This document shows, piece after piece, positions 1,066-49,946 of a DNA stretch of 64,000 nt. How positions within the stretch are numbered: position 1 is the first letter of the stretch; every line of letters starts with the position of its first letter. The position numbers were made by a program, and so were the translations under genes. The notes under the pieces were generated by a model. The model was not told the origin of the DNA. It searched no databases and saw only the letters and a program-made list of their open reading frames with translations. Source of the DNA: Gemmatimonadota bacterium (GTDB lineage: Bacteria; Gemmatimonadota; Gemmatimonadetes; Gemmatimonadales; GWC2-71-9); assembly GCA_003222135.1 (NCBI GenBank), contig QHUM01000046.1, forward strand, positions 1,664 to 65,663. The letters are read 5' to 3'.

Positions 1066-3618
1066 ATGCCGGCAAAATGGAAGCCCGGGTCCGATCCGCT
1101 CAGTGCCTATCGAGCCAAGCGGTCGTTGGACCGCACGCCGGAGCCCGGCGCTCGTCCCGCGGCCGCAGCCCCCTCCGCCGGCGGCCTGTTCGTGGTCCAC
1201 ATGCATGCCGCCCGGCGGCTGCACTGGGACCTGCGCCTCGAGATGGACGGCGTGCTCCGGTCCTGGGCAGTCCCGAAGGGGCCCTCGCCCGACCGTGCCG
1301 ACAAGCGGCTCGCGGTCCATGTGGAGGACCACCCGCTCGAGTACGGCGACTTCGAGGGGATCATCCCCGACGGCAACTATGGCGCGGGCGCCGTGATCGT
1401 GTGGGACCGCGGTCGCTGGGTACCGCTCGAAGACCCGCACGAGGGAATGAAGAAGGGGAAGCTGTTGTTCGAGCTGCACGGCTACAAGCTCAAGGGCAAA
1501 TGGACCCTCGTGAAGCTCAAGAAAGGCGAAAAAGAGTGGCTGCTGATCAAGGAGAGAGACGGCTACGCCGCGGCGGACGGCGGGGGCGCCCTGCCGCCCG
1601 AGTCGGTGCTGTCCGGGCTCACGGTCGACGAGCTGAAGGCGGGGAAAGACCGGGCGGCGCCCGTGGTGAAGGAGCTCGCGCGTCTCAAGGCGCCCAAGCG
1701 CGCCGTCACGCTCGAGCAAGCCGAGCCGATGCTCGCCGAGACGCGCGAGCAGCCGTTCTCGAAACCCGGATGGCTGTTCGAGCTCAAGCTCGACGGGTAC
1801 CGCGTCCGCGGCGGCCGCGAGGGAGGAGAGGCGCGGCTCGTCACGCGTAACGGACACGACATCGCGCCCGCGTTCCCCGAGATCGCCCGCGCCCTGACGG
1901 CCCTCCCGTACGAGGGGTTCATCTTCGACGGCGAGCTGTGCGTCCCGGACGAGGCAGGCCGGCCGAGCTTCCAGCGCCTCCAGAACCGCGCCAAAGTGTC
2001 CCGGGCGCTCGAGGTGCGGCGTGCGGCGGTTGAGACCCCTGCCGTTCTGTATGTGTTCGATCTGCTCGCGTTCGAAGGCTACGACGTTCGGCCGTTGCCG
2101 CTCGAGCAGCGCAAGGCCCTGCTCGAGCAGCTCGTGCCGCGCGTGGGTCCGATCAAGTATCTCTCGCACTTCGAGAAAGACGGCGAGGCGCTGTACGAGC
2201 AGATCGTGAAAATGGGGCTCGAGGGGATCGTCGCCAAAAAGGCGGACTCTGCCTACCGCGCCGGCCGGTCGCCCAACTGGCTCAAGATCCGCGCCGACCG
2301 GGTCGACGACTTCGTCGTCGTAGGCTTCACGCGGCCCAAAGGCTCGCGCTCGGGGTTCGGCGCGCTCGACCTGGGCGCGTACGAGAACGGGAAGCTGGTG
2401 TATGCCGGACGAGTCGGCAGCGGGTTCACCGCCGCGGAGCTCAAACAAGTGAGCGCCGTGCTGGAGCGCGGCATTCGCCCGACGCCTGCCTTCACTGGTC
2501 CCGTCCCCCAGGACCCCGGGCATACCTGGGTCGAGCCCACGCTGGTGGTGGACGTCAGATACAAAGAATGGACCGACGAGGGGCTGTTGCGGCAGCCGGT
2601 GTTCGTCCGGTTCCGCGACGATAAGAAGCCCGAGGAGTGTGTGAAACCGGGAGGCGGGAGGCGGGAGCCGGGAGACAAAGATCCCGCCGCGGCGCCTCCC
2701 GCCTCCCGCCTCCCGGCTCCCGATGAACGGAGGGAGATACGGTTCTCTAATCTCGACAAAGTCTTCTGGCCGGAAGAGGGCTACACCAAGGGCGACTTGA
2801 TCGAGTACTACCGGGCCGTATCCCTGTGGATGCTGCCCTATCTCGCCGATCGGCCCCTGGTGCTCACGCGCTTCCCCGACGGCATCACCGGGAAGTCCTT
2901 TTTCCAGAAGGACGCCCCGGAGTATGCCCAGGCGTTCGTGCGAACGGTCACGATCTGGAGCGAGGACTCGCAGCGCGAGCTTGACTATTTCGTGTGCGAC
3001 AACGAGTCCTCGCTCCTCTACATCGTCAACATGGCGGCGATCCTGCTCCATGTCTGGTCGTCCCGCGTGTCGACCCTGGAGACGCCTGACTGGTGCATCT
3101 TGGACCTCGATCCGAAGGAGGCCCCGTTTACGGACGTGGTCACCGTGGCGAAGGCAGTCCGGGCGTTGTGCGACGAGATCGGCCTGCCGACGGGCATCAA
3201 GACGAGCGGCTCGACCGGCCTTCACGTGCTGATCCCGTTGGGTCGCCAGGTCACCTACGAACAATCCCGCACGCTGGGCGGACTCCTGGCACGGGTCATC
3301 GCGGCCGAGCTGCCGGAAATCGCCACAGTAACGCGGCAGGTCCAAAAGCGGGACGGCAAGGTGTATCTCGATTACGTGCAAAACGGTCACGGGCGCCTGC
3401 TCGTCGCGCCCTTCAGCGCGCGGCCCTTGCCCGGCGCGCCGGTGTCGATGCCGCTCGCGTGGAGCGAGGTGACGCCCAAGCTCGATATCCGGAAGTTCAC
3501 GATCGCCAACGCGCCGGCCCGCATGAAGAAGCTGAACGACGACCCACTCCGTGCGGTGCTCGAGGAGAAGCCCGATCTTGTGAGCGCGCTCGAGCGGCTC
3601 CATGCCCGTCTCGGCTGA
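1066..3618 (+). CDS. ligD: ATP-dependent DNA ligase D (phosphoesterase-ligase-polymerase order)
   Basis: 850 aa. It has an N-terminal 3'-phosphoesterase motif (HMHAARRLHWDLRLE) and a ligase adenylation motif (ELKLDGYR). The C-terminal primase-polymerase domain shows NLDKVFWPEEGYTKGDLIEYY and SGSTGLHV. Confidence 0.95.
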   Translation: MPAKWKPGSDPLSAYRAKRSLDRTPEPGARPAAAAPSAGGLFVVHMHAARRLHWDLRLEMDGVLRSWAVPKGPSPDRADKRLAVHVEDHPLEYGDFEGIIPDGNYGAGAVIVWDRGRWVPLEDPHEGMKKGKLLFELHGYKLKGKWTLVKLKKGEKEWLLIKERDGYAAADGGGALPPESVLSGLTVDELKAGKDRAAPVVKELARLKAPKRAVTLEQAEPMLAETREQPFSKPGWLFELKLDGYRVRGGREGGEARLVTRNGHDIAPAFPEIARALTALPYEGFIFDGELCVPDEAGRPSFQRLQNRAKVSRALEVRRAAVETPAVLYVFDLLAFEGYDVRPLPLEQRKALLEQLVPRVGPIKYLSHFEKDGEALYEQIVKMGLEGIVAKKADSAYRAGRSPNWLKIRADRVDDFVVVGFTRPKGSRSGFGALDLGAYENGKLVYAGRVGSGFTAAELKQVSAVLERGIRPTPAFTGPVPQDPGHTWVEPTLVVDVRYKEWTDEGLLRQPVFVRFRDDKKPEECVKPGGGRREPGDKDPAAAPPASRLPAPDERREIRFSNLDKVFWPEEGYTKGDLIEYYRAVSLWMLPYLADRPLVLTRFPDGITGKSFFQKDAPEYAQAFVRTVTIWSEDSQRELDYFVCDNESSLLYIVNMAAILLHVWSSRVSTLETPDWCILDLDPKEAPFTDVVTVAKAVRALCDEIGLPTGIKTSGSTGLHVLIPLGRQVTYEQSRTLGGLLARVIAAELPEIATVTRQVQKRDGKVYLDYVQNGHGRLLVAPFSARPLPGAPVSMPLAWSEVTPKLDIRKFTIANAPARMKKLNDDPLRAVLEEKPDLVSALERLHARLG
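2648..2723. repeat. Heptad-built palindrome (4x CSGGGAG, 21-nt spacer, 4x CTCCCGS) in frame in the ligD Lig-Pol linker
   Basis: Sequence is ccgggag gcgggag gcgggag ccgggag - acaaagatcccgccgcggcgc - ctcccgc ctcccgc ctcccgg ctcccg. About 25 of 28 arm positions are complementary. It is translated as PGGGRREPGDKDPAAAPPASRLPAP. Confidence 0.85.
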
Positions 3619-4918: not shown

Positions 4919-5280
4919 GGGCTGGGCTCGTCGTGTGGCTCGGCCTGATCGCCGCGCGGCCCGGCGTGGCGCAGGACCGGTGGCAGTTGACGCTCAATAG
5001 CGGCACGACGCTGTGGGATCTGCGGCTCGTCAAGCTCGCCGGTGATACGCTCGTCGTGCGCCGCGCCGACTCGACGTACGCGTTCCCGCTCGCGGAAGTC
5101 GACGAGATCCGTCTGGTCCAGAAGTCCACGCGGCACATCACGCCCGAGGCGGGTCGCTACGGAGGGGTGCTGGGCGGGATGGACGACGAGGTCCACCGGC
5201 TCACCCTCTACTCGCTGTCCGAGCGGCGCGACATCGTGCGGCAGATCTTCCAGGCCCACCCACCCGGGGCGGGTCCCTGA
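4915..5280 (+). CDS. hypothetical protein with N-terminal signal-like segment
   Basis: 121 aa starting MRAGLVVWLGLIAARPGVAQD. Third codon positions are strongly G/C in this frame. ATGA overlap with the bTHX stop. Confidence 0.55.
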   Translation: MRAGLVVWLGLIAARPGVAQDRWQLTLNSGTTLWDLRLVKLAGDTLVVRRADSTYAFPLAEVDEIRLVQKSTRHITPEAGRYGGVLGGMDDEVHRLTLYSLSERRDIVRQIFQAHPPGAGP

Positions 5281-5284
5281 GCTC

Positions 5285-6514
5285 CTGACCACTCGCTCGC
5301 CGGATCGCCGCATTCTGCTGGTCGACGCGGACGCGTTCTACGTCGCGGTCGCCCGGCTCGTCGACCCAGCCGGTGCGGGGAAGGCGCCCCTGCTGATCGT
5401 GGGCGGCTCACCCGAGCGCCGCGGCGTCGTGACCTCGGCGTCGTACGAGGCGCGCGCCTACGGGGTCCACTCCGCCATGCCGATGGCGCGTGCCGTGCGC
5501 CTGTGCCCCAATGCCACGGTGGTGCCGGTCCCCTGGGAGGCGTGCGCCCGGAAGAGCCGAGACATCAAAGAGGTGTTGGAGCGATTCACCCCGGCCGTGG
5601 AGCAGGCGTCGAGCGACGAGTTCTACGTCGACCTGACCGGCACGGAGCAGTTGTACTCGGGCGAGCCGCTCGCGGCGACCGCACGGCGGATGCGCGAAGC
5701 GGTGGCGCGCGAGACCACCCTCGTCGTCTCGATCGGTGGGGGTACATCGAAGCTTGTCGCCAAGCTCGCGGCGGGAGTCGCAAAGCCGCGGGCCGGGACG
5801 CCGGCGGACGGCGTGCACGTGGTCGCTCCAGGCGCGGAGCTCGAGTTCATGCGACGGTTCTCCCTCGCGGACATCCCCTTCATTGGACCCAAGTTCCAGG
5901 AGCGGCTCGCGAAGCTGGGCCTGCACGCGGTGAGCGACGTGCTGCGGTATGAGTCGGAGACCCTGATCGGTTGGCTCGGGCGGCGCGAAGGCGAGTGGCT
6001 CGCCGAGCGGGTTCGCGGCATCGATGCCACGCCGGTCGAGCCCCATCGCGAGCCCAAGTCGATCAGCCGGGACGAAACCTTCCCTCAGGACTTAGTGGAA
6101 GACGACGCCCTGGCCACGCGGCTCCTCGCCCTGGCCGACCGCGCGGCCGCCGACCTGCGGGAGGCCGGCCTGCTCGCCCGCACCATCACGGTGAAGCTGC
6201 GCGACGCTGACTTCACCACCCGCCAGGCCAGTCGCACGCTCGCCGACCCGGTACAGTCGAATCGGACGGTCTACGAGGTGGCGCGCGAGCTGCTCCGCAG
6301 GCTGCGCGCCGCGCGGCGCGTGCCGGCGCGTCTCCTTGGCGTCGCCGTGTCGCAGCTCGTGACGCCGGACGCGAGGGCGCAGCTCTCCTTGCTCGATGAG
6401 GTGCGGCCCCTCGAGACGGAGCGCGACCGCATCATCTCCCGCGTGATCGACGAGGTGCGGGAAAGATTCGGCCCCGACGCGCTGGGCCGGGCCCGGAGCC
6501 ACGGTTCTGCTTGA
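5285..6514 (+). CDS. dinB: DNA polymerase IV (Y-family)
   Basis: ILLVDADAFYVAVARL, SYEARAYGV and SIGGGTSKLVAKLA are DinB motifs. There is no in-frame ATG/GTG/TTG between the upstream gene stop (5280) and the conserved N-terminus. 5285 is an in-frame CTG, so the start is uncertain. Confidence 0.85.
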   Translation: MTTRSPDRRILLVDADAFYVAVARLVDPAGAGKAPLLIVGGSPERRGVVTSASYEARAYGVHSAMPMARAVRLCPNATVVPVPWEACARKSRDIKEVLERFTPAVEQASSDEFYVDLTGTEQLYSGEPLAATARRMREAVARETTLVVSIGGGTSKLVAKLAAGVAKPRAGTPADGVHVVAPGAELEFMRRFSLADIPFIGPKFQERLAKLGLHAVSDVLRYESETLIGWLGRREGEWLAERVRGIDATPVEPHREPKSISRDETFPQDLVEDDALATRLLALADRAAADLREAGLLARTITVKLRDADFTTRQASRTLADPVQSNRTVYEVARELLRRLRAARRVPARLLGVAVSQLVTPDARAQLSLLDEVRPLETERDRIISRVIDEVRERFGPDALGRARSHGSA

Positions 6515-6563
6515 CGTCTCTGCGTGACGCCTTTGCTTGACGCCTTTGCGTGACGTCTTTTTG
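6512..6563. repeat. 4 tandem copies of a 13-bp unit TGACGYCTYTKBK
   Basis: Units are tgacgtctctgcg, tgacgcctttgct, tgacgcctttgcg and tgacgtctttttg, beginning at 6512, 6525, 6538 and 6551. The first unit contains the dinB stop. The array fills the convergent gap to the ACT gene. Confidence 0.85.
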
Positions 6564-46730: not shown

Positions 46731-47281
46731 GAACCCTCGGCGTTGTGCTGCTAGCGTGCAGCGCTGCCTTCGGGAGCCGGGGGGGAGAGGTACCCATCGC
46801 CCCTCCGTTCGAGGTCATCGTTCTCCCCGCGGGGCTCCGCGGCATGATGAGCGCCGTCTGGATCCAAAACAACCGTCACTGGGACGAGCTCGCGGGCCAG
46901 AACACCCTCACGCAGCTGCTGGGGACGGGGAAGCCGACCCAGCGCGAGTACTTGGGATGCCTCGCCGGCGAGGTCGCGAACGACACGCTCTGGGTGCGCG
47001 AGCTCCTCGCGGCCGCTGAGCTCAAGCAGCTGCAGTTCGCGGTGGCGGGCAATTGCGACCAGGTCGACCACTTGGTGGGGACGTGGCACACGCACCCGTA
47101 CCGGGCCGGCCCGGACGGCGGTGCCTTGAAAGAACGCGGTCTGTCGGCGCTGGACCTCGCCACCTTCGCGGCCGCCCGCGATCTCATCAGCGTCGTCATG
47201 TGGGACATGGATTCGATCGACGTGGCGGCGAAGGCGCCCGACGGGTCGGTCCGCCATCCGGTCGCGCTCAGCCCGCGCTAG
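46727..47281 (+). CDS. lipoprotein with JAB/MPN-like metalloprotease motif
   Basis: GTGA overlap with the PEBP stop. Lipobox VVLLAC. Motif GEV...HLVGTWHTHP-(16 aa)-SALD resembles E..HxH..SxxD of JAMM, but with a longer His-Ser spacer. Confidence 0.45.
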   Translation: MRTLGVVLLACSAAFGSRGGEVPIAPPFEVIVLPAGLRGMMSAVWIQNNRHWDELAGQNTLTQLLGTGKPTQREYLGCLAGEVANDTLWVRELLAAAELKQLQFAVAGNCDQVDHLVGTWHTHPYRAGPDGGALKERGLSALDLATFAAARDLISVVMWDMDSIDVAAKAPDGSVRHPVALSPR

Positions 47282-48786
47282 CGCGCGGCGCCTACGTCCG
47301 CGTCGAAAACTCCCGTCAGAATCCGGCCATGGCGCTTGACCTGCACCCACAGGCGGTAGCGCCCCGGCGTGGGAAACGCATAGGGGAAGGACACTGCGTC
47401 TGGGGGTACCTCTCCCTTCTCCCATCTCCCCATAGCCATCGCCGCAAGTCGCTTGCCGAGCTCCCCGCGGATCGTGTCTCCCGGCTGGCGCAGCATGAAC
47501 GTTTGCTGCGCGGCGACCGAGATCGTCCCGGCCGGATGGAGGTGCACGAATACGGCGCCGTCGTCGCGCGTGATCATCGCGTGCGCCGCCATGCCCATGT
47601 AGGGCTCGAGCGCCGCCGGCTTGCTGTCCGGTGTCCGGACCAGGAACGTGAGCGGAGCGTCTCGATCGACGACGATCGGGGCATCCCCACGGTTCCAGGT
47701 CATGGTCGAGCCGTCCGCTAGTAGGGAAACGGCTCCCGTCTCCCGTCTCCCGCCTCCCGACCACCAGGCGTCGTCTGTGCCGCCGGGAGTCGGGAGACGG
47801 GAGACGACGGCGGGCGGCAGATCGAGCCTCGCAACCAGCGTCTGTGCGAACCCGCTCTCATGCACGATGTCTGCGTAGAGGCGATACGTCCCGGGCGGAA
47901 GCGGGGGCAGCAAGGTCTCGAACGTGGTCGAGTCGACGGGAAGGGGATGGAGGTGGGCGAACGCGTCGAGCCCGCCGTCTCGGACGAGAAACAAGTGCAT
48001 CAGGTGGCCGTGGTCCGGGATGAGCGGCGTCCACTGGCGCTGCCGGTTTGCCCAGGAGCTGTCGTCGATGGCGAAGCGCAGCACGCTTCCGGTGGCGGTG
48101 GCCCGCACCGTGGCAGCGGCGTGGAGCGGCTGGTACAACCCGCTGCGGTACGCGGCGTCGACCGCGTTCCACCACGCCCGGCCGCCGAGCAGCGCGAGAG
48201 CGAGCACCAGGGCCCCCACGAAGATCGCGATCCGCGAGCGGAGCGTGCGACGGCGGTCGGGCTCGGCGCCGGGCTCGAGCCCGCTCTCTCGCACGGCGGC
48301 ACCGACGATCGTGAGCGCTCCCACGCACAGGAATGCCCCGAGCGCGAGCAGCGCCGCACCGAGCGGCTTCTCGAGCGCGAGTCGCCGGGTCGCCACGGCC
48401 ATGACGGGAACGAGCGTCGTGCCGGTTCCCGCCTCTCCCTCGACGGTCACCCGCACGCTGTAAGCGCCGGCGCTCATGAGCCACAGGGCTGCGCTGTAAA
48501 GCGTCGAGTCGCCGGGGACGGGGGCCGCGACGTCGGGGGGTGGCGGGGCCGCGGTCCGCGGGTCCCAGAAGACGGGTAGCACCAGCACGCGCCGGATCAC
48601 GTGCGGGGTGAGCAAGCGGACGGTGATCTGGGCGAGTCCGGGCACCACTCCGGGATTGCGTACGATCACGCGCACCGGGTACGCGCCCGCGGCGCCTTCG
48701 AAATATGTGTCCGGGCTCCCCACGTGCGCCGAGGCGACGAGCGCGATCCCCGCGAGCGCACCCAGCCTGAGCCCGCGGCCCGTCAT
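47278..48786 (-). CDS. hypothetical periplasmic/membrane protein with duplicated H-L-H-P domains
   Basis: 502 aa from ATG 48786 (ATGA overlap with the upstream gene). Signal ending ASA|HVGSP, a central TM pair, and two similar domains (AHLHPLP..PPGTYRLYADI and VHLHPAG..TPGRYRLWVQV). Confidence 0.55.
   Translation of the reverse strand: MTGRGLRLGALAGIALVASAHVGSPDTYFEGAAGAYPVRVIVRNPGVVPGLAQITVRLLTPHVIRRVLVLPVFWDPRTAAPPPPDVAAPVPGDSTLYSAALWLMSAGAYSVRVTVEGEAGTGTTLVPVMAVATRRLALEKPLGAALLALGAFLCVGALTIVGAAVRESGLEPGAEPDRRRTLRSRIAIFVGALVLALALLGGRAWWNAVDAAYRSGLYQPLHAAATVRATATGSVLRFAIDDSSWANRQRQWTPLIPDHGHLMHLFLVRDGGLDAFAHLHPLPVDSTTFETLLPPLPPGTYRLYADIVHESGFAQTLVARLDLPPAVVSRLPTPGGTDDAWWSGGGRRETGAVSLLADGSTMTWNRGDAPIVVDRDAPLTFLVRTPDSKPAALEPYMGMAAHAMITRDDGAVFVHLHPAGTISVAAQQTFMLRQPGDTIRGELGKRLAAMAMGRWEKGEVPPDAVSFPYAFPTPGRYRLWVQVKRHGRILTGVFDADVGAAR
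47733..47806. repeat. second heptad-built palindrome (4x CTCCCGN, 23-nt spacer, 3-4x CGGGAGN), in frame in CDS 47278..48786
   Basis: Sequence is ctcccgt ctcccgt ctcccgc ctcccga - ccaccaggcgtcgtctgtgccgc - cgggagt cgggaga cgggaga cg. On the minus strand it is translated as SRLPTPGGTDDAWWSGGGRRETG. Confidence 0.85.
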
Positions 48787-49946
48787 CGCCGCAGCCTGGC
48801 CATCCAGTTCCCCCACCCGAGGCCGAGCCGCGCGGAGAGCACGGCGAGCAACGCGGCGATCACGAACGCGCGCGGCGTCACCGGATCGGTCTCGGCACGC
48901 CAGAAGTGGTAGCGCCAGGGCCCGGGGCGGCTCGAGTAGTCCCAATGGTCCACGCCGAACAGATAGTTGTGGCTGTGCGGACTGAGCAGAAACTCGCTGA
49001 AGAACCATTGGGTCACGAAGAACACCGCGAGGAAGGCGAGCCCAACCAGGCCGGACAGCCGCCAGTCGCGACCCGGGCCGACGCGCTGCATCAAGAGGTC
49101 GATCGCCAACGCCGGGACCACGAGCAGCAAGGGGAACGGCGGCGGCACCATGTGTGTCAAGGGATTGAAGACCGGCGCGAGCTTCGGGGTCGCGGGCGCG
49201 AGCTGCAGGATCCAGATCATTGCGAGCGAGAAGCCCATGTAGACGAGGGCAGCGGTCGTCGCCGGCCAGCGGAGTCGGACGGCGCGCCCGGCCGCGACGA
49301 GCAGGATGGGCATGGCGCCGGCCGCCACTTGGTAGTAGACCGCGCTATGAGCCACGTTGGGAAAGCCGATCTGCTCGATGCCGATGGTCGCGGCGTTCTG
49401 CAGCAGAATGCCGATCACGTAGGCGCCGAGCAGGCCATATAGCCGTGAGGCCTGCTGCGCCGGACTGCGGTTCTGCAGCGAGAGCACGAGGAAGAGACAG
49501 CCGAGCTGAATCGCCCAGATCCCGAGCGCGAGAATCACGTGCGGAGGCGACAGGACTTTCACGTCGAGGCCGTACGCGTTGTGCCACCAGTTGTCGAACG
49601 GGGCCGAGGTGATCATCGCGAAGGCGCCCCAGATGCACACCCAGGCTCCCAGCGGGCCGCGGAAGCCCCAGAACCCGACCGCAGCGGCCCGCTCTTCCGC
49701 CGTGCCCGCGAAGCTCGTCCGGAGCACGAGCCAGCCGCACCCCAGGCCGGCGAGCACGCCGCCCAGGTAGATGGCTGCGTGCGCGGGGGTCCAAAAGGTG
49801 TCGCGACCGATCGAGCGGTGCCAGGAGATGTCCCAGATGATGCCGACTTTGGCGCTCGTCGCCGCGACGAGCGTGGCGGCGACGTACCAGGGCACGTGCG
49901 CCGCGAGCGGCGGGGCGCGCGTGGTGGGCGTGGCCGCCGCCGTCAT
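48783..49946 (-). CDS. polytopic membrane protein of unknown function with internally repeated W-H...P-x-H motif
   Basis: 387 aa with about 10 TM segments. WDISWHRSIGRDTFWTPAHAAIYLG is repeated as FDNWWHNAYGLDVKVLSPPHVILALG. Confidence 0.6.
   Translation of the reverse strand: MTAAATPTTRAPPLAAHVPWYVAATLVAATSAKVGIIWDISWHRSIGRDTFWTPAHAAIYLGGVLAGLGCGWLVLRTSFAGTAEERAAAVGFWGFRGPLGAWVCIWGAFAMITSAPFDNWWHNAYGLDVKVLSPPHVILALGIWAIQLGCLFLVLSLQNRSPAQQASRLYGLLGAYVIGILLQNAATIGIEQIGFPNVAHSAVYYQVAAGAMPILLVAAGRAVRLRWPATTAALVYMGFSLAMIWILQLAPATPKLAPVFNPLTHMVPPPFPLLLVVPALAIDLLMQRVGPGRDWRLSGLVGLAFLAVFFVTQWFFSEFLLSPHSHNYLFGVDHWDYSSRPGPWRYHFWRAETDPVTPRAFVIAALLAVLSARLGLGWGNWMARLRR

Follow-up and report, generated by a model that had tools for sequence, protein, structure and literature searches.

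Inverted heptanucleotide repeats in the inter-domain linker of LigD from soil Gemmatimonadales

The LigD gene and its linker palindrome

The element described here is a palindrome of heptanucleotide units (heptads) inside the LigD gene of a Gemmatimonadota bacterium (GenBank assembly GCA_003222135.1, contig QHUM01000046.1). A stretch of 64,000 nucleotides of this contig (positions 1,664 to 65,663, forward strand) was analysed as a whole and is referred to as the window; coordinates are counted from its first letter. The LigD gene occupies 1066..3618 on the + strand and encodes 850 amino acids in the order PE-Lig-Pol, as assigned from the open reading frame (ORF), its translation, and Pfam and Protein Data Bank (PDB) domain matches. 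The closest LigD proteins in the databases have 830 amino acids, and the true start is therefore probably about 20 codons downstream.

The domain limits were taken from Pfam and from sequence matches to PDB entries, as an AlphaFold2 model built with 38 close orthologues was unusable (mean predicted local distance difference test score, pLDDT, of 38). The protein contains the Pfam families LigD_N, DNA_ligase_A_M/C and LigD_Prim-Pol; by their limits, the ligase OB domain extends to residue 520 and Prim-Pol starts at residue 574. LigD domains of solved structure align to residues 221-527 in the case of the ligase and from residue 554/557 onwards in that of the polymerase. A hypervariable inter-domain linker (residues 522-556, 2629..2733, + strand) was delimited by tblastn flank anchoring and protein alignment. 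It is bordered by the conserved blocks FRDDKK and EIRFSNLDK, which served as tblastn anchors in all loci. The palindrome corresponds to residues 528-553 and thus fills the gap between the PDB-matched ligase and polymerase domains. Within the ORF 1066-3618(+), it keeps the frame, has no stop codon and encodes PGGGRREPGDKDPAAAPPASRLPAP.

The 5' arm (2648..2674, + strand) is made of four G-rich heptads CGGGAGN, with G, G, C and A as the successive last bases, and reads CGGGAGG, CGGGAGG, CGGGAGC and CGGGAG. A 21-nt spacer (2675..2695, + strand), which forms the loop region in the predicted fold, separates it from the 3' arm (2696..2722, + strand). The latter has four C-rich heptads CTCCCGN (CTCCCGC, CTCCCGC, CTCCCGG, CTCCCG) and is the reverse complement of the 5' arm. 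According to an inverted-repeat search, the arms are 27 nt each and 93% complementary (25/27). Both period-7 arrays are detected by Tandem Repeats Finder (TRF). Folded as RNA, the palindrome has a predicted energy of -61.8 kcal/mol (z = -5.95); as DNA, the prediction is -38/-39 kcal/mol on either strand (z about -6.9).

The LigD palindrome is far beyond chance expectation. The pattern GGGAGNCGGGAG was counted 20 times where 4.8 occurrences are expected, and none of 100 shuffles reached this count. When arms of 23 nt with 21 or more complementary bases are required, exactly two inverted repeats are present in the 64-kb window, to which all counts of heptad palindromes for the source genome refer. 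They are centred at about 2682 and 47769, and dinucleotide shuffles yield 0.01 on average. A search against Rfam 15 gave no match at the gathering threshold anywhere in the window.

The element also carries the motif G3-N4-G3-N4-G3-N4-G3, on the + strand in the first arm and on the - strand in the second. The canonical G-quadruplex (G4) definition of four tracts (G>=3 N1-7) therefore applies to both strands. A quadruplex at these arms would face a competing hairpin, with predicted energies of -62 kcal/mol (RNA) and -38 kcal/mol (DNA).

An earlier note, made from the letters of this DNA, had described the arms, the 21-nt spacer and the reading frame, and this description was correct throughout. 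Its placement of the palindrome exactly in the Lig-Pol linker agrees with the Pfam and PDB limits. The hairpin capacity that it proposed is matched by strong predicted folds of both RNA and DNA, and the G4 motif is indeed seen on both strands. The note had also made its proposal dependent on further copies in the genome and on the peptides of orthologous linkers. A further copy exists at 47733-47806, beyond the expectation from shuffles, and the orthologues encode differing peptides with the palindrome present.

Conservation of the site and diversity of the heptads

Orthologous DNA was gathered in three ways, by protein look-ups, by a scan of species-representative genomes (80 loci of 37% to 72% identity from many phyla) and by a scan of metagenome contigs (80 loci of 76-90% identity). 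No database entry identical to the LigD protein of the window was found. LigD homologues of 80-100% identity are plentiful in soil metagenomes, and the named ones belong to metagenome-assembled genomes (MAGs) of Gemmatimonadales or Gemmatimonadetes. In this Gemmatimonadales clade, the position of the heptad palindrome is conserved while the heptad itself varies by lineage. An ungapped stem of at least 18 pairs was found in 59 of the 70 distinct clade linker DNAs, so that the palindrome is kept in about 85% of the lineages.

In a table of consensus units, at least 12 different heptads occur for which the consensus of the G-arm is the reverse complement of that of the C-arm. The most frequent are GGGGAGC and GGGATGC (11 sequences each) and GGGGAGA (8 sequences). 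Further matched units are GGGAAAC, GGGGGAC, GGGGGAA, GGGAGGC, GGAGCAC, GGGAAGA, GGGGAAA, GGGAGCA and GGGGAGT. Individual loci illustrate the match: CGGGAGG is answered by CCTCCCG in the window, GGGGAGA by TCTCCCC in L001, GCGGGAT by ATCCCGC in L002, CGGGAAA by TTTCCCG in L004, GGGAGCA by TGCTCCC in L009, CGGGGCT by AGCCCCG in L010, and CGGAGCA by TGCTCCG in L013. In the clade's LigD palindromes, the G- or purine-rich arm is 5' and its complement 3'. The linker peptides are hypervariable but of similar length, e.g., KKGEGRGERD...SPISPLP, KRDAGGEMRD...HPASRLSHP and PGNGKREAGN...SPVSPVPFP.

Outside the clade the linkers lack this architecture. Fold z-scores range from -4 to -6 in the clade and lie near 0 for almost all of the 68 more distant linkers of LigD; likewise, the period-7 self-match is 0.45-0.59 in the clade and about 0.25 in the distant linkers. 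A few non-heptad stems, such as those of L029 and L062, are the exceptions. Linker length is 26-37 residues in most LigDs, whether the palindrome is present or not, and the distant linkers (Longimicrobiales, Rokubacteria/Methylomirabilota, Acidobacteriota, Nitrospira, Pseudomonas and others) are of equal length or longer. Within the clade, the structure or half of it was lost in L141/142/144, L157, L117/118, L006 and L011.

Two other Gemmatimonadales LigD genes carry repeats of a different layout. A solitary (GAGGGAG)x7 array lies in the OB-domain region of one, upstream of a non-palindromic linker (L016, 11417-11464). The other has a linker of 83 residues formed from 15-nt (GGPGDD)n repeats, which are not heptads (L040, 11555-11803).

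Covariation and concerted change of the arms

RNAalifold returned no structure from a mixed-length MAFFT alignment of 55 linkers because the heptad register differs between length classes. Covariation was instead assessed in the gap-free class of 93 nt (30 sequences), by explicit pair counting and by stem analysis of each sequence. In the 93-nt class, 88% of the cells are paired, compared with 51-65% when the partner is slid. Double changes involve 7 pairs and 39 cells, which was reached in none of 500 shuffles. Moreover, the variable heptad position switches between C-G, A-U and U-A in all three units. The linker sequences are phylogenetically related and these shuffles ignore kinship; the slid-partner control retains it and is clearly lower. 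This shows that the two arms are kept complementary across lineages.

The units within an arm change together as well. The window and L105 have shared linker flanks, with 78% identity at fourfold degenerate sites, and GG of the window corresponds to AA of L105 in each unit of the two arms. Independent point substitutions cannot yield such a pattern. Indeed, within each lineage one unit fills all copies of both arms, which are about 90% complementary, and the arms therefore evolve in concert.

The remaining mismatches between the arms are symmetric with respect to the strands. When each mismatch position is counted once per length class, G.T and A.C mismatches number 19 and 23 (p = 0.64); the raw counts are 28 and 49. 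If a stem in the sense-strand RNA were selected, G.U mismatches should exceed A.C. The symmetry gives no support to a function of the sense RNA; it agrees with a constraint or process that affects double-stranded DNA, or both strands equally.

Some linkers differ by more than their units. L089, L091, L092 and L096 have LigD flanks 97.5-98.7% identical to those of L093, while the linker cassettes of about 100 nt are wholly unlike (VTEIAKKGEGRGERD... versus PTECVLPGKREGGRG...). This difference reflects either recombination of linker alleles or chimeric assembly, as metagenomic contigs may be chimeric. The proposition that the linker evolves faster than synonymous sites was partly withdrawn for this reason, the extreme L089-type/L093 cases being whole-cassette replacements or chimeras rather than stepwise changes.

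Heptad arrays in a second gene and at other sites

The second palindrome of the window lies in a gene on the - strand (47278..49008) for a 576-aa protein of no Pfam family, which was characterised from its ORF, Pfam, a structure model and an alignment. The gene bears other heptad arrays as well. As read on the + strand, the palindrome begins with the C-rich arm (47733..47759, CTCCCGN x4), followed by a 24-nt spacer (47760..47783) and the G-rich arm (47784..47806, CGGGAGN x3.3); both arms were detected by TRF. The arms are 96% complementary, and the C-arm comes first, opposite to the LigD palindrome on both strands. The only sequence shared by the two palindromes is the heptad core CGGGAG, and their spacers are unrelated. 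The second palindrome encodes SRLPTPGG...SGGGRRETG in a predicted loop. Furthermore, a solitary array found by TRF and through the orthologues, GGGAGAN x3 on the sense strand (47409..47430), encodes MGRWEKGEV. The units GGGAGGC, GGGAGAC and GGGAGAA thus all occur within 64 kb.

The orthologues of the 576-aa protein reveal gains and losses at both sites. At site 1 (47733-47806), most orthologues have the G-arm only, with the peptide SGNGKRETGN and similar ones; the subclade that contains the window has gained the upstream C-arm. In L168, site 1 holds a solitary (CGGGAAA)x10 array. At site 2 (47409-47430), full palindromes are found in some orthologues, for instance GGGGAGC/GCTCCCC in L166 (-71 kcal/mol). 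Both sites are loops with a pLDDT below 50 in the AlphaFold model, which is otherwise of moderate quality. Heptad arrays and palindromes hence come and go at the disordered loops of another gene, and the phenomenon is not specific to LigD. The idea of a single heptad unit throughout one genome was discarded, as the two sites of L168 carry different units, GGGAAAC (site 1) and GGGACGT (site 2).

The protein itself has thousands of homologues. Its AlphaFold model (mean pLDDT 60) predicts transmembrane helices and Ig/FN3-like beta-sandwiches, and invariant HLHP/HxH motifs appear in the alignment.

A period of 7 dominates among the arrays in 586 kb of loci (26 arrays; periods 8 and 9 account for 1 and 3). 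One of the arrays touches the neighbour of LigD. In the window, as in the loci with inspected gene calls, the Ku gene neighbours LigD in divergent orientation. On the Ku sense strand, a telomere-like (GGGGYTA)n array at 168-192 spans the Ku stop codon, the TAG lying within the unit, and crosses the 14-nt gap before the ATG of the next gene (MerR-like). It is a G4-type motif (G4N3) without an inverted partner. Of 92 related loci, 11 have this array, in 2-5 units (e.g., L002 9092-9127, L094 2098-2127, L119 2092-2127 and L135 2096-2127), which indicates that the copy number changes where the frame does not forbid it. As listed, the divergent Ku and LigD ORFs are only 19 nt apart (1047-1065).

Several other repeats were encountered. 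In the window, the 13-nt unit TGCGTGACGCCTT is present four times in tandem (also scored as 26 nt x2) at 6508-6560, at the end of the ORF 5042-6514. In two Gemmatimonadota MAGs, AGGAGCT x4 followed by GGCTGGT x10 was seen at or after the 3' end of LigD (L015 7868-7967, L017 7681-7712). L017 also has an AT-rich heptad palindrome at 128-216 (GAATATC GAACATC ... / GTTCGAT GTTCGAT ATTCGTT) with 14/14 core complementarity; the architecture is thus not dependent on G-rich units. In a deltaproteobacterial contig (L054 5766-7136), a CCCCAGT-type array accompanies several long arrays of GAGGACT, recalling the heptamer repeats of cyanobacteria. The short tandemly repeated repetitive (STRR) heptamers of cyanobacteria are another class of heptanucleotide repeats.

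Arm polarity in viral contigs

A scan of IMG/VR for (GGGAGNN)x3 GGGAG returned more than 120 stretches. Among 78 distinct viral arrays, an inverted copy (threshold at least 16/21) lies downstream in 16 and upstream in none, while background scores are symmetric (29 versus 33). Palindromes with a pattern match in both arms may be counted once from each strand, so the number of independent cases is about 9 to 16. The spacers measure 8-130 nt, the contigs have 62-74% GC, and some of the palindromes are inside long open frames and some outside. Examples are L184 3800-3995, L190 980-1115, L205 1440-1545, L220 3265-3470, L258 1195-1300, L267 2545-2660 and L283 5530-5710. The G-arm also comes first in the LigD palindromes and at site 2 of the gene for the 576-aa protein; the C-arm is first only at site 1 (window, L167). 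This polarity might result from selection against transcripts in which a C-rich, Rho-attracting arm is exposed before its partner. Another idea is an origin by template switching just after synthesis of a G-rich nascent strand.

Proposed origin and alternative explanations

The LigD element is an inverted pair of heptanucleotide microsatellites, (GGGNNNN)n followed by its reverse complement, located in the disordered segment between Lig and Pol in a clade of Gemmatimonadales from soil. With roughly even confidence, we propose that such pairs are kept by slippage and hairpin-templated repair and are tolerated in flexible protein segments. Replication slippage favouring a period of 7 would maintain the heptad arrays and turn the unit over. 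A hairpin could form in single strands of the locus, and the periodicity of the arms would permit out-of-register pairing too. Templated synthesis or mismatch correction in this hairpin, as in quasipalindrome template switching, would then transfer changes between arms and between units. All that selection would demand is a preserved reading frame, no stop codons and a linker length of about 30 residues. These needs are met by GGGNNNN/NNNNCCC arrays, which are stop-free and encode flexible Gly/Arg/Glu and Pro/Ser/Leu stretches in any register. The hairpin and the G4 potential would then be by-products and not a selected function. The slippage steps, the template switching and the absence of a function are what we infer from the patterns described above.

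Several observations weigh against this proposal. Neither polymorphism of heptad number nor frameshifted alleles were found among the 80 metagenomic LigD loci, so that ongoing slippage at LigD is something we infer rather than observe. Irregular units persist unmirrored over several lineages, for instance CTGTCCC in the GGGAAAC class, and homogenisation from arm to arm is consequently not fast. Part of the apparently fast turnover is whole-cassette recombination or chimeric assembly. Finally, the retention in about 85% of lineages and the excess of G-arm-first palindromes are easier to explain by a use of the element or by an unspecified directional process. On account of these points, a function in the mRNA or at the level of DNA and bound proteins deserves continued consideration.

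The palindrome could be a functional mRNA hairpin between the domains, its pairing kept by selection on the RNA. Its possible roles would be a pause for co-translational folding once the ligase domain is made, a control of polymerase-domain output, or a site of mRNA stability or processing. The conserved position at the domain boundary over the clade, with compensatory changes, the strong predicted stems (-40 to -81 kcal/mol) and the retention of the structure in most lineages all speak for it. We nonetheless regard it as unlikely, though worth keeping in view. The G.U mismatches do not outnumber A.C (19 versus 23 unique events), like structures occur in the loops of another gene and in viral contigs outside any long ORF, and several orthologues (L141, L157, L117/118, L006 and L011) have lost the structure without disruption of LigD. 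Besides lacking an Rfam match, the hairpin comes without a U-tract, a conserved slippery site at the right spacing or an in-frame restart codon, and if pairing were all that is selected, the heptads of one arm would not stay identical to each other. Alternatively, the heptads may be binding sites for a protein that reads 7 nt, or form a G4 or cruciform, and thereby give transcription, replication or recombination a directional barrier or signal. Such a function has a somewhat lower probability still. It would account for the downstream position of the inverted copy in all 16 partnered arrays of the viral contigs against a symmetric background, for the listing of close Gmet_H4 elements of Geobacter metallireducens (discussed below) as (+) then (-) pairs, for the G-runs kept in most units and for the strand-symmetric mismatches. 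A protein of the required kind is also conceivable, as CspB binds heptamer repeats with one protein per unit (cited in PMC4679880). A sequence-specific binder is difficult to reconcile with heptads that differ among lineages and between loci of one gene (L168). A G4 is equally hard to reconcile with linkers of which more than half lack the four-tract motif, some units having only GG (L013, L086, L008). The second palindrome of the window has the opposite arm order, and no candidate factor was identified.

The earlier note had likened the element to in-frame insertions such as the Rickettsia palindromic elements (RPEs). A mobile palindromic element of this type, or one like MITEs (miniature transposable elements with inverted repeats), would have been inserted in frame and diverged afterwards. 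The palindrome is in frame and stop-free, the genome has more than one copy, and similar GGGAG-heptad palindromes occur in unrelated viral contigs. This part of the note did not hold, and we consider mobility very improbable. The linkers have no added length compared with palindrome-free LigDs, and the same site is occupied clade-wide with lineage-specific units. The two copies in the window have no common internal sequence, their spacers being unrelated, and their opposite arm order cannot be produced by any orientation of one element. Moreover, the arrays of the other gene grow from solitary arrays and not from complete units, and no target-site duplication is evident around the LigD palindrome in the window sequence. 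A requirement at the protein level, namely for a Gly/Arg/Glu-rich and then Pro/Ser-rich linker segment with incidental nucleotide symmetry, would agree with the fact that the peptides of all variants are flexible, of low complexity and similar in length. It is hardly credible, as the peptides diverge widely between lineages with nucleotide complementarity preserved; under selection on the peptide only, codon degeneracy would soon erase the complementarity. Distant LigDs, moreover, use unrelated linkers.

More specific roles were tried and rejected. The G4 motif is not a conserved property, since the four tracts are present in the sense strand of 31 of 70 linkers, in the antisense strand of 19 and in both strands of 11; units without G3, such as CGGAGCA and GTGGTGA, undercut it further. 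An intrinsic terminator was dismissed, as the sequence after the stem, GATGAACGGAGG, has no T run. For a dnaX-type -1 frameshift site, a conserved slippery heptamer of the form X XXY YYZ is needed 5-9 nt upstream of the stem. GCG AAA AAG is found in one class only, where it abuts the stem; other classes carry GTGAAACCG, GCGAAACGG and similar sequences, and the stops in the shifted frame follow no consistent pattern. No in-frame start follows the stem, which rejects an internal restart for a separate polymerase protein. Phase variation was rejected because the lengths of the 62 distinct linker DNAs (window and 80 metagenomic loci) are all multiples of 3, without +/-7 variants within a heptad class. 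Finally, mimicry of Shine-Dalgarno or anti-Shine-Dalgarno sequences would rely on GGAGG/CCTCC, which are in the unit of this genome and missing from GGGAAAC, GGGATGC and others.

Implications

The LigD linker offers a natural case of concerted evolution within a gene, in which both arms and all units change together in a conserved protein. It could serve to measure slippage and hairpin-templated conversion in the wild, and lets one ask how much non-B DNA and how stable an mRNA hairpin coding regions tolerate. It also calls for caution in annotation, as hypervariable "low-complexity linkers" can reflect dynamics at the DNA level rather than selection at the protein level.

Paired inverted G-rich heptads are found across Gemmatimonadales genes, among Geobacter Gmet_H4 elements (judged by coordinates) and in IMG/VR contigs. 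A more far-reaching interpretation, for which we see only a small chance, is that they represent a distinct, widespread and unnamed class of bacterial and viral elements with built-in polarity and self-homogenising arms. Such elements would be made or used by a directional process, such as template switching triggered by a G-rich nascent strand, or a barrier or signal that acts in both directions on transcription/Rho or replication. The LigD copy would then be retained for expression of the non-homologous end joining operon. Should a function underlie both the orientation bias and the similarity to Geobacter, several phyla and their viruses would contain a class of regulatory or structural elements that has gone unrecognised.

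Comparison with known systems

In the open-access literature, no account of positionally conserved coding heptad palindromes that evolve in concert was found, and a search on Gemmatimonadetes repeats and STRR gave nothing usable. Nevertheless, several known systems share some of the features. Phase-variable coding simple sequence repeats (SSRs) resemble the LigD arrays in that gain or loss of one 7-nt unit in the ORF shifts the frame. Unlike phase-variable loci, the 80 LigD loci show neither copy-number polymorphism nor a frameshifted allele. RPEs are elements of about 150 bp in multi-copy families, with conserved sequence and encoded peptide, inserted relative to orthologues (PMC10969869). 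Like RPEs and intragenic MITEs, the LigD element is palindromic DNA in frame in a gene at a protein-compatible site. In contrast to RPEs, it has no conserved full-length sequence, the peptide varies between lineages and there is no insertion relative to orthologues.

Heptanucleotides are the most abundant class of long SSRs in prokaryotes and were ascribed to slippage, as summarised in PMC4679880 (Mrazek 2007); TAACTGA heptad repeats in Beggiatoaceae and cyanobacteria are described there as well. The period of 7, the arrays of 2-10 units and the variable copy number are common to these SSRs and the arrays studied here. The SSRs described there are direct repeats and mostly intergenic, the intragenic ones being mostly multiples of 3. 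The arrays described here, however, are in frame within genes, have an inverted partner and occupy a conserved position.

For the complementarity of the arms, template switching at quasipalindromes is an established mutational pathway in E. coli (PMC7202029). In this pathway, one arm templates the correction of the imperfect other arm, and by analogy the same process may act on the LigD arms. Quasipalindrome switching is known from hotspots in laboratory reporters, and not as the long-term upkeep of a natural coding palindrome.

The Gmet_H4 elements are the closest precedent. The genome paper of G. metallireducens reports 49 of them, each with four tandem heptads GGGACCG/GGACCGG, within and between genes (PMC2700814). 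They are annotated only as predicted regulatory, and "global regulatory elements" were proposed (PMC2700814). The coordinates in supplement S6 list many of them as a (+) element followed by a (-) element 14-200 nt further on (PMC2700814), a pairing deduced from the coordinates alone. The four tandem G-rich heptads and, as judged by these coordinates, the layout of G-arm, spacer and inverted C-arm are common to Geobacter and the LigD palindrome. Yet a single heptad consensus is found in all 49 Geobacter copies, whereas the unit described here varies by locus and lineage. Conservation of the site across species and covariation of the arms, which were not described for Gmet_H4, are both seen in the LigD linker.

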